From Octopus vulgaris (Eukaryota): a stretch of DNA of 64,000 nucleotides. The position numbers and the translations under genes are program-made. Location: contig OX597839.1 of assembly GCA_951406725.2 (NCBI GenBank), forward strand, positions 3,534,001 to 3,598,000. The letters run 5' to 3'. Under the pieces are notes generated by a model, which was not told the origin of the DNA, searched no databases, and saw only the letters and a list, made by a program, of their open reading frames with translations. Below, one piece after another: positions 3,235-53,900 of this stretch (positions are counted from its first letter, which is position 1; each line of letters starts with the position of its first letter).

Positions 3235-3437
3235 GTGTTGATTCGCTAGCCTCTGCACGCATTTTTTCTCTCCTTGTTTCTTTCTGTGTTTCTTTTCTGT
3301 GTATCTTTCTGTTGAAGAGCGTAGGCTCGAAACGTAAAAGACTTGTTTTATTTATATTCCTGAGCGCCATACTAATACAATTGTTTGTTTGTATTCCACC
3401 TGCCTTCGTCTTTTGTTTATTTTCATAAAACTTCCCG
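3235..3437 (+). mobile_element. Short PLE-derived element in (TA)n with hammerhead-like motif
   Basis: CTTT-CTGTTGAA-GAGC-GTAG-GCTC-GAAAC-GTA-AAAG; relatives near 50570-50770 and 52905-53040. Confidence 0.55.
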
Positions 3438-3887
3438 CTATATATATATATATATATATAGTGAGAATTTACAAAAAAAAAACAAAAGACAAAGACGGTG
3501 TGTAATCGGATTTGCAAGGAGCCATGTAAGCGTCAATTTGTGGATTCGATTCAGCCTGATGTTAGCTCATCATTTTTCGGTCATTTGTTTATATTTAAAA
3601 GTTGTCGCTTCAAATCGGAGAATAAATATTATTATGATATATTATTATACAGTTATATATATACTCGGAAGGTGTATATATATATATATATATATATATA
3701 TTTGTTAACGGTAATTTATAATACTTTTCTCGGTGTAATGCGTGTTCGTTTCTATTTTGCATCTGTGATTTTTTAAAAATCTTTTGTATAAATAAAGATA
3801 TTTCCTTCGTTTTGATGGTTTTCTTTCTACTAAATGAGAAGAAAAAAAACATCGCGAAACTGTTATTTTAACGAGTTATATCTGTTT

Positions 3888-50900: not shown

Positions 50901-53900
50901 TTTTTTATTTTTCAGGTGAAGAAGCCAAAAACCCTCAGAAAGCCATCCCCATCAGTATCATCATCAGCCTCTTCATTGTGTTCATCTTCTACTTCTTGAT
51001 ATCCCTTGTTCTGACCACGATGTCTCCTTATTATCTGCTAGATGCTAGTGCTTCTTTACCGTTTGTCTTTGAGAGAATTGGATGGAACATTGCAAAATAC
51101 GTGATCGCAATTGGCGGCATTTGTGCTCTGACTGCCAGGTAAACAGTTCTTGAAGCTCTCCATAGTCTTCATGTTCTTTGGCTTAGGAAATGGTTTTTGT
51201 ATTTTATTCAGGAATGGCTATGCGGTTAAGAAGTTTGCTTCCTGGCCACATGGTCACAGGATTGATCATACACAAACACACACACACACACACACACACA
51301 TACGTACACATACATACGCACACACACTTGCACACACACATACATACACACGTACACACACACATACATACACACGTACACACACACACACAAACACACT
51401 ACATACATATGCACACAAACAAACACATACGCATACACAAACTTACACACACACAAACACGCTCGCATACACACACATAGACATACACACATACGCACAC
51501 ACATACACATACATAGACAAGCATACACACACATGCACACATACATCTAGACACACACATACACACATACACATACGTACACACACATACGCACACACAC
51601 ACTTGCACACACACATACATACACACGTACACACACACATACACACACATACACACACATACACACACACATACACACACATACACACACATAGACAAGC
51701 ATACACACACATACATCTCATACATCTAGACACACACAAACACACATACACACACATATATATACACACACACTATCTTTGATGTACTATAACGTAATAT
51801 AGGCGGGAGTGATTTTGTTGAAATACTTCTTTGGTAAAATTGTACATCTTGGAAGACATCAAATATGGAAGCCTACTTTCTTCTCTATCTCTATCACTCT
51901 CCCGCTCTCTCTCTTAGTCTCTCTCTTACTCTCTCTCTTGCTCTCTCTCTCTCTCTCTCTCCATCTCTCTCACTCTATCGCTATATTTCTTTTACTCTCT
52001 ATCTCTTTCTCCTTTGCTGTTTTGTTCTACCCATCTCCTGTTCTCTCCCTCTCCTGCTCTCTCTCTCTCTCTTGGTCTTTATTTCTCTCTCTTGCTGTCC
52101 TGCTCTCCCCCACTTGCTCTCTATCGCTTTCTCACTCTCTCTCTCTCAGTGTCTCTAATTCTATCACTATCTCTCTTTTATTCTCTCTCTTTCTCTCTCT
52201 CTCTATCTCTCTCTCTCTCTCTTGAACTGTTTCTCTGTCTCTGTGTCTCTGTCTCCTCTCTCTCTCCGTTTCCTACTCTCTCTCCTTCTCTCCACCTCTA
52301 TCAATCACTTGCTCTCTATCTATCTATCTACCTCTCTCTCTCTCTCTTACTCTCTCTTTTCCTCTTTCTTTTCCCTCACTCTTTCTCTCCTTTCTCTTCC
52401 CCTCTCTATTTTTCTGTTTCGCTATACATACAAACACACATACACACATAAATACATTTATTCACCGCTATGATCGAAGATATTCCAATGATGACCACCA
52501 CCACCACAACCACTATAATATTTTATATCCCCACCAACCTCTTTATATATTTCAGCATGGTAGGTTCAATATTCCCCTTACCCAGGGTTGTGTATGCAAT
52601 GGCTGAGGACCGCATAATCTTTGGTAATCTTTCTAAAGTATCAGACAGGTTCAAGACCCCTGTCCTGGCAACGTTGGTCGCTGGACTCTTTGCAGGTCAT
52701 TCAACTTCTACTATATTTATTTATTTATTTATTTGTCTGTCTCCCTGTCTGCCTGTCTGTCAGTCTCTCATTCTGTCTGTCTGTTTCTCAGTCTGTCTGT
52801 CCAATTGTCCACCTGTCTGTTTGTATATCTGTTTGTCTGTCTGTCTATCTGCTTATAGTGTTGTATGTATATATAAATATATATATATATATATATATAT
52901 ATATATTCTGTGTTCCTTTCTGTGGAAAAGCATAGGCTTGAAACGTTAAAGACTTTTTCACTTCTCGAGCGTTAAACTAATACATCTATTTGTTGTCTAC
53001 ACTACCTGTCTTCGTCTTTTGTTTTTTTGTGAATTCTCCCTATATATATATGTGTGTGTGTGTGTGTGTATGTATATGTATATATATATGTAGATATATT
53101 TATATATATATATATATATATATATATATATATATATATATATATAATATATATGTATATATAATATATATATATATACATGTATATATATATATATATA
53201 TATATATATATATATATATATATTAATAAAATAAATAAAACATATAGCATATATATAAACATATATGTACGTACCTACCTCTACATGTACATATACACGC
53301 ATATATGAGTACAGGACACCAAATGGACGTCGAACACATAGAGAAACGAAAACATAGACACAAAGCTAAGGAACAGGACGATTTTTTTAAAAACAACAAA
53401 AAATGGAGTACAAGACAGTTAACACAACGAAAAAACCCCTTCTTCAGTCGCTAAGGTTTCATCTACTCTACGTTTCGAAGTATATGTATATATATGCACA
53501 TACATATACATACATGTATATCTGTCAGTCTGAGTGTCTACATATATGTGCCTCTGAGCTGTTCGTTTATTTTCTATCTATGTGTCTGTCTCTCTATCCA
53601 TCTGCTTATACTGTTTTGTATATATATATATATGTACGTATGTATACAACATATCGTCTGATCCAGAAATCAAAACCACCATCGAAAGATTATGAGTCCA
53701 ACACTCTAGCCACTAAGCCATGCACCTCCACGTAACAGAAACCATAATCTTATGATAATGAGTCCAACAACCTTACCACTAAGCCATGTGCTTCCACATA
53801 CTGAAACCAAATTAGTAAGAACCATGGCCCCTACAGAATGATATTTGACCTCAAGGAAGCACACATCTTAGAAATCCCATTAACATCACTAGAATACACA

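Follow-up and report, generated by a model that had tools for sequence, protein, structure and literature searches.

Setting of the motifs in the window

The window analyzed here, a stretch of 64,000 nucleotides from Octopus vulgaris, is animal-like, with 38.6% GC and many microsatellites and repeats, including an abundant SINE-like repeat that presumably resembles octopus repeats. It carries an amino-acid permease gene on the plus strand, with exons at approximately 50917-51139 and 52557-52695, the first of which matches PF00324. Distributed over the window are six copies of a minimal hammerhead-like motif, which we refer to as A1 to A3 and B1 to B3 and which appear to belong to Penelope-like elements (PLEs). 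A2 and A3 lie on the sense strand of the permease gene in flanking noncoding DNA, with A2 just upstream of an exon. Dispersed repeats at other sites of the window match the 90- and 184-bp units of the tandem arrays in the following list.

3236..3438, plus strand: element A1, a putative 5'-truncated PLE-type 3' end with TA runs on either side
3305-3340, plus strand: minimal hammerhead of A1 (C3 3309, U6 3312, N7 3313, G12 3329, H17 3336)
3461..3504, minus strand: partial A-type 3' end lacking the hammerhead, tail to tail with A1 over a 22-nt TA run
8869-9297 and 21388-21882, minus strand: two similar ORF pieces matching Pfam PF15874 (Il2rg) above the cutoff, possibly duplicated exons
12349..12541, minus strand: element B3, of a more diverged B-type subfamily
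12495-12461, minus strand: hammerhead of B3, with U4C and a private A9>C
23883-25621, 30717-31839, and 47833-49789: tandem arrays with units of 90, 138, and 184 bp
37183..37582, minus strand: element B2, with TA runs on either side
37314-37280, minus strand: hammerhead of B2, with U4C and a private G5>A
42251..42629, plus strand: element B1, homologous to B2 from 42251, with a CA-rich tract inside
42487-42521, plus strand: hammerhead of B1, with U4C at 42492 (H17 42517)
50606..50771, plus strand: element A2, homologous to A1 from approximately 50606
50645-50680, plus strand: hammerhead of A2, with A6U
52905..53040, plus strand: element A3, with TA runs on either side and 5' truncation approximately 10 nt before stem I
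52916-52951, plus strand: hammerhead of A3, with A6U and G at N7

Core changes shared within two families

All six motifs lie at the coordinates and on the strands given by the first-pass annotation and can be aligned as one homologous motif. The alignment also bears out the core changes it had described as common to one subfamily or the other: position 6 is U in all three family A copies (A6U), and position 4 is C in all three family B copies (U4C), the diverged B3 included. Additional, private core damage is seen in single copies (G5>A in B2 and A9>C in B3).

A strict descriptor of the minimal type I hammerhead, allowing at most one core mismatch, matched three of the six copies, the others being missed because of their extra decay; it matched no other site in the window and gave no match in any of 30 block-shuffled windows. 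Profiles derived from the copies (nhmmer) recovered all six, with A and B cross-matching, and added the inverted partial 3' end beside A1. Targeted Rfam scans of A1 and B1 yielded no hammerhead family match, and no hammerhead was present among the 150 of 262 whole-window Rfam matches listed; the whole-window matches represent miRNA noise driven by microsatellites. A search for proteins mistakenly predicted over B1, which would have allowed position 4 to be read, returned none at an E value of ≤1.

Pairing and covariation in the stems

Over the six copies, 46 of 48 stem cells are paired. Helix I spans 3 to 5 bp, within the range of the published PLE minimal hammerheads (min-HHRs). An unpaired extra base stands between positions 9 and 10.1 in every copy, G10.1-C11.1 is found in five copies (A-U in A3), and U16.1-H17 is of the U-H type throughout.

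The first-pass annotation had proposed covarying stems, with a compensatory switch of stem I from CTTT/AAAG to GTTT/AAAC, a conserved stem II, and a stem III reduced to the ACGT palindrome. For stem I, this holds at the level of one pair, which is C-G in three copies, G-C in two, and unpaired in one; the full GTTT/AAAC stem occurs in B1 only, as B2 keeps the outer G-C with one inner pair broken and B3 has CTTT/AAAT, which is not B-type. Stem II is kept as described, by conservation more than by covariation, its sole two-sided change being private to A3. The ACGT palindrome (15.2/16.2 CG) is whole in four copies and reads ACAT in A2 and B3, corresponding to two CpG-type decays. The combined pairing and covariation score was reached by 15 of 500 shuffles. 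Covariation in the stems is thus thin, consisting of one subfamily-level compensatory pair and one private change, and had been overstated.

A6U is fixed across family A

We aligned contigs from four runs, covering three organism codes, on A1 at ≥80% likeness, and 14,540, 14,793, 6,092, and 3,041 contigs, respectively, could be fitted. With a variant threshold of 3%, position 6 (3312) yielded no variant row in any of the four runs, all 28 of 28 bins being covered. Variant rows were likewise absent at C3, U4, G5, G8, A9, G12 to A15.1, and U16.1 in the four runs. At N7 (3313), T>A reached 19 to 23% and T>C 18 to 28% in all four runs, and G at N7 was found in loose-end consensuses and in copy A3. 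The remaining rows within the motif were CpG sites at 0.6 to 8% and one end of stem I at 3 to 6%. In hundreds of contigs, the match to A1 begins only at 3305/3306 or stops at 3344, the sequence past those points being loose ends. These shares are depth weighted over short contigs in which only A1-like sequence is visible, and variation is underreported because of the likeness filter and this weighting, as the loop and H17 differences of the window copies produced no variant rows at all.

These data show that A6U is fixed across family A and is not decay, and they speak against the possibility that the family consensus has a canonical core of which the window copies are merely damaged versions. 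For U4C, the corresponding evidence is its presence in all three window copies and, as described below, the fact that it characterizes a subfamily within a separate PLE family. Among the core bases, N7 alone is strongly polymorphic in the family A contigs; it is the N, or free position, of the hammerhead core consensus (PMC3088659). That both subfamily-level substitutions should fall there has a P value of approximately 8e-4 under a uniform model chosen post hoc. The N7 pattern therefore leans toward a retained hammerhead fold; the first-pass annotation had likewise proposed a retained fold, serving either as a variant ribozyme or as a noncatalytic RT-recognition structure. Comparing the motif as a whole with its flanks, 1 of 36 and 14 of 157 sites, respectively, were polymorphic at ≥10%, a difference that is not significant (Fisher P = 0.31).

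Element anatomy and probable PLE origin

A TA run starts 94 to 117 nt past H17 in all six copies, in agreement with the earlier description of elements ending at TA repeats. Their 5' ends are ragged, lying approximately 10 nt before stem I in A3 and approximately 70 nt before it in A1, while the similarity between B1 and B2 extends at least 235 nt upstream of the hammerhead. Element length consequently runs from approximately 135 bp (A3) to approximately 380 to 400 bp (B1/B2), not the uniform 200 bp first proposed. A fixed 3' end, variable 5' truncation, an inverted partner, and a microsatellite target are the traits of 3' ends of endonuclease-bearing PLEs. Moreover, every published feature of the metazoan PLE min-HHR consensus is matched save U4/A6; that consensus comprises a U-rich 5' flank, a helix I of 3 to 5 bp, a base between 9 and 10.1, G10.1-C11.1, and palindromic 15.2/16.2, and most such motifs are described as single copies, probably from truncated PLEs (PMC4209133). 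A preference for (TA)n has been discussed for Neptune and Naiad PLEs (10.1101/2021.04.23.441226).

Considering that the 3' end is fixed and the 5' ends are variable, we infer that the six loci are 5'-truncated 3' ends of PLEs rather than tandem retrozymes, and the parent families are probably two related, Neptune-like PLE families. The PLE origin proposed by the first-pass annotation is thus supported, whereas its retrozyme-like character is not; the miniature, nonautonomous nature it proposed would be doubtful, as the fixed 3' and ragged 5' ends fit ordinary truncated PLEs. The profile search of the window found six solitary copies and one partial copy and no tandem units, and TRF at B1 reported TA only. 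In the four contig runs, joints on the 193-bp A1 stretch were skips only, with no back-joints, although a longer unit would escape such a search. All six copies read through the cut site, a property to be seen in light of the fact that they were found by the motif itself.

The annotation had also envisaged an autonomous PLE sharing the 3' end. None was found upstream of B1/B2, where translations of approximately 290 to 330 nt contain no recognizable ORF end, and no ORF start inside the ribozyme is seen in the window copies. The window does hold a PLE remnant with hammerhead-like motifs nearby:

43998, minus strand: hammerhead-like motif with a canonical core, inverted, upstream of the remnant
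44400-45800, plus strand: decayed PLE ORF (RT thumb region; Atlas 0.97; PF26215 HTH_animal in 15 to 33% of members)
45877, plus strand: degenerate CTGAAGA downstream of the remnant

The remnant gave no Pfam match and has a GIY-YIG-like C terminus. As a candidate autonomous partner it was rejected, the A and B profiles (nhmmer) failing to match it, and by sequence it appears to represent a family other than A and B.

U4C in an unrelated-looking family from metagenomes

We scanned metagenomes with the 3' part of the core and one stem II sequence fixed. Among the 120 of an estimated 400 loci listed, positions 3 to 6 read CTGA in 37, CCGA in 26, CTGC in 1, and CTGT in none; 26:37 is not a family ratio, being drawn from the matches listed. 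Most other loci listed are junctions left by truncation or inversion, or fortuitous matches in DNA of high GC content. The 26 CCGA loci listed reduce to at least 23 unique loci of one low-GC family, and at least 21 unique CTGA loci among the matches listed are sister subfamilies of this U4C family, which is similar to the Neptune row for Acropora digitifera (Fig. S3 of PMC4209133). The absence of A6U from the 120 loci listed says little about its range, as one stem II sequence was forced, and a family-specific pattern had no match in metagenome and viral contigs.

In a tree built from sequence downstream of the cut only, 18 U4C and 18 canonical rows among the matches listed are separated by a single, moderately supported branch (81/92), with 8 of 44 rows omitted as truncated or rearranged; an earlier tree that retained truncated rows and one unrelated row needed two changes. 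An ORF end resembling a GIY-YIG C terminus lies approximately 100 nt upstream in 3 of 22 U4C loci checked and in two canonical loci, again among the matches listed. This ORF end has a weak Atlas lead (0.89, with PF01541 in 42% of members), and reads like a PLE GIY-YIG C terminus. U4C is therefore the hallmark of a PLE subfamily that amplifies in another host and is linked to an ORF. The flanks of A and B in the window show no real similarity to this family (best E value, 0.32), which argues against a shared origin of U4C, and the metagenome change probably arose independently of that in family B. Since a separate PLE subfamily has U4C beside canonical sisters, U4C appears to recur among PLE families.

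Predicted folding and cleavage

In the predicted monomer fold of family A, U6 pairs with A15.1 and closes a rod, with a pairing probability of 0.98 when N7 is U and 0.42 to 0.74 with the other N7 bases; with A at position 6, this probability falls to 0.00. The predicted fold of B1 is also a rod. According to these models, the rod competes with the active hammerhead fold.

Natural variants are known at the same positions. A viroid hammerhead with U4C is weak in vitro yet supports infectivity, and the A6C hammerhead of phage Bcep176 has low Mg2+ activity (PMC3088659) and prefers Mn2+ (PMC7151607). Pairwise mutagenesis of a type III hammerhead found low activity for CUGA-turn mutants, with rescue by the C3-G8 swap only (PMC9901934), and A6U and U4C may for this reason be nearly dead. 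By analogy with this published mutagenesis, low activity is predicted for both cores.

An attenuated hammerhead as the favored reading

Our data suggest that transposon families keep spreading with a weakened yet conserved ribozyme. We favor, with a probability of roughly 0.55, an attenuated hammerhead whose fold is still under selection. In this scenario, the insertions are 5'-truncated copies of two (TA)n-targeting PLE families, of which there would remain the pseudo-LTR end, comprising the minimal type I hammerhead and approximately 100 nt past it. Master elements would have amplified with the altered core, so that fast self-cleavage would be unneeded for insertion. The hammerhead architecture would remain under selection; the likeliest reason is that another stage of the cycle makes use of the fold itself or of a slow cleavage that depends on a dimer and is probably assisted by protein. 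Reverse transcription would start approximately 100 nt downstream and copy uncleaved RNA through the ribozyme, and a weaker core may leave more intact template. Such an adaptive step would account for the apparent fixation of U4C in two PLE families that look unrelated and of A6U in one.

Work on Poseidon_Ac offers a frame for this scenario. Its RNA is cut at 26 nt and reverse transcription initiates 111 to 118 nt into the ORF, a distance that by subtraction amounts to 85 to 92 nt; protein is required for cleavage, and hammerhead core mutants have no effect on insertion in vitro (PMC11167929). What the hammerhead does in PLEs that bear an endonuclease has been called unclear (10.1101/2021.04.23.441226; PMC11167929).

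Alternatively, a dead hammerhead may be kept as a structural signal, that is, as a rodlike hairpin or dimerization palindrome recognized by the PLE protein. The rod would consist of stem I, the pairs U4-G, G5-C, and U6-A, tandem G.A pairs, and stem II. This reading gains from the U6-A15.1 pair in the predicted monomer and the rod of B1, from the weak activity of CUGA-turn mutants (PMC9901934), from the dispensability of catalysis for insertion in vitro (PMC11167929), and from the spread and proliferation of Naiad PLEs in which hammerheads are undetectable (10.1101/2021.04.23.441226). In the rod, however, A14 lies opposite N7 and neither C3 nor U16.1 is paired; were the rod the only function, these three bases should be about as free to vary as N7. 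Only N7 varies, and its alleles C and A weaken the rod. In addition, insertion still takes place with Poseidon_Ac templates whose 5' truncation extends into the ORF start, beyond the core's 5' half (PMC11167929). We therefore favor the attenuated hammerhead and regard a purely structural signal as unlikely.

Chance offers a simpler history, in which a master copy lost its ribozyme, transposed on, and left a motif uneroded so far. The lack of a significant difference in polymorphism between motif and flanks (P = 0.31) and the extra core damage of individual copies agree with such a neutral relic, but the flanks diverged and N7 took three to four bases while the other core bases stayed fixed, and independent decay to the same base in three of three copies is improbable (rough upper bounds of 0.008 and 0.001). 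We consider this history very improbable. A further question is whether the copies are nonautonomous miniature or retrozyme-like elements with a short unit of their own, moved in trans by a PLE, with which either function of the motif would be compatible. The approximately 290 nt upstream of the B1/B2 hammerhead lack a coding remnant, family A contigs are very numerous, and animal retrozymes have been argued to derive from PLE pseudo-LTRs and can be largely monomeric (10.64898/2026.07.22.740005). Against this stand the ragged 5' ends, a window without tandem units and a 193-bp stretch without back-joints (which a longer unit would escape), and the attachment of the analogous metagenome U4C family to an ORF end; published retrozymes are, moreover, canonical type I hammerheads in tandem (PMC7229834). 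On balance, such units are quite unlikely.

Going beyond the attenuated hammerhead, it is possible, if doubtful, that U6 and C4 hammerheads are functional core variants, with dimeric, protein-bound PLE RNA tolerating or rebuilding the CUGA turn. PLEs would then have repeatedly detuned their ribozyme, and descriptors with a fixed core, as well as Rfam, would be missing a large class.

Relation to known hammerheads and retrozymes

The window copies share with the min-HHRs of metazoan PLE pseudo-LTRs the type I topology, short helix I, extra base at 9/10.1, and G10.1-C11.1, as well as a helix III made up of the palindrome only, U-rich flanks, mostly solitary occurrence, and division into families per genome (PMC4209133). 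They differ from them in that the strict core, CUGANGA...GAAA (or its U3-A8 version), gives way to A6U or U4C. The family-level variant U3-A8 (PMC4209133) is a compensatory swap, which A6U and U4C are not. Neither is shown in the representative rows examined of Fig. S3 of PMC4209133, but the descriptor used there fixed the core.

The viroid U4C and Bcep176 A6C hammerheads are altered at the same core positions, but they are single full-length ribozymes in which tertiary contacts may compensate (PMC3088659, PMC7151607); the changes in the window are fixed in high-copy transposon families on a minimal scaffold, with U rather than C at position 6. Poseidon_Ac is similar in having a hammerhead approximately 90 to 100 nt upstream of the 3' end of the insertion and AT-rich targets, and unlike the window copies in that C3/G8 mutation affects its core in the canonical way and the start of its ORF lies within the ribozyme (PMC11167929). 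Animal non-LTR retrozymes are likewise noncoding and PLE related, with a type I hammerhead and dispersed monomers, but they form tandem units with canonical hammerheads and circular RNAs (PMC7229834; 10.64898/2026.07.22.740005). Their defining canonical type I hammerhead is replaced in the window by a minimal scaffold with an altered core.

In the available excerpts of the hammerhead literature, no PLE family was reported in which A6U or U4C is fixed; an earlier description is possible, for instance by Lunse et al. in 2017, who reportedly treated short-stem-III PLE hammerheads, or by Arkhipova et al. in 2017, whose subject is said to be Terminons. Excerpts of PMC6765202, PMC7229834, PMC6155905, 10.64898/2026.07.22.740005, and the Octopus repeat paper PMC13282606 make no mention of such families.

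With the A6U and U4C families and the canonical metagenome sisters, nature supplies matched pairs in which the importance of cleavage for transposition can be examined. Should the U6 core be able to cut, the accepted hammerhead core would widen, and current counts would underestimate the ribozymes of animal genomes. Should it be unable to, a hammerhead fold would have been conserved for a noncatalytic job.

Other hammerhead-like repeats

At one metagenome locus among the matches listed, L024, a minimal hammerhead from another family carries A6C in its core. Partial copies in inverted orientation recur in the metagenome PLE family, with their junctions on the hammerhead's 5' strand or slightly within it (L001, L020, L041, L043, L044, L083, L111, and others). 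This suggests a hot spot of template switching or stalling at the ribozyme; the search pattern itself favors such junctions.

Two further repeat families in the window carry hammerhead-like sequences:

22737 (plus strand), 53447 (minus strand), and 38334 (minus strand): a third TA-flanked repeat family with permuted hammerhead half-motifs, the GAAA part lying approximately 30 nt upstream of CTGAAGA
12894 (minus strand) and 13077 (plus strand): a head-to-head mirror repeat pair in which the CTGA-N-GA core is canonical and is accompanied by GAAAC and by a 3-bp stem II with a loop of approximately 45 nt

A type II hammerhead reading of the TA-flanked family was rejected because stem I does not pair. 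The mirror repeat pair looks like an inverted pair of pseudo-LTRs from another PLE family.
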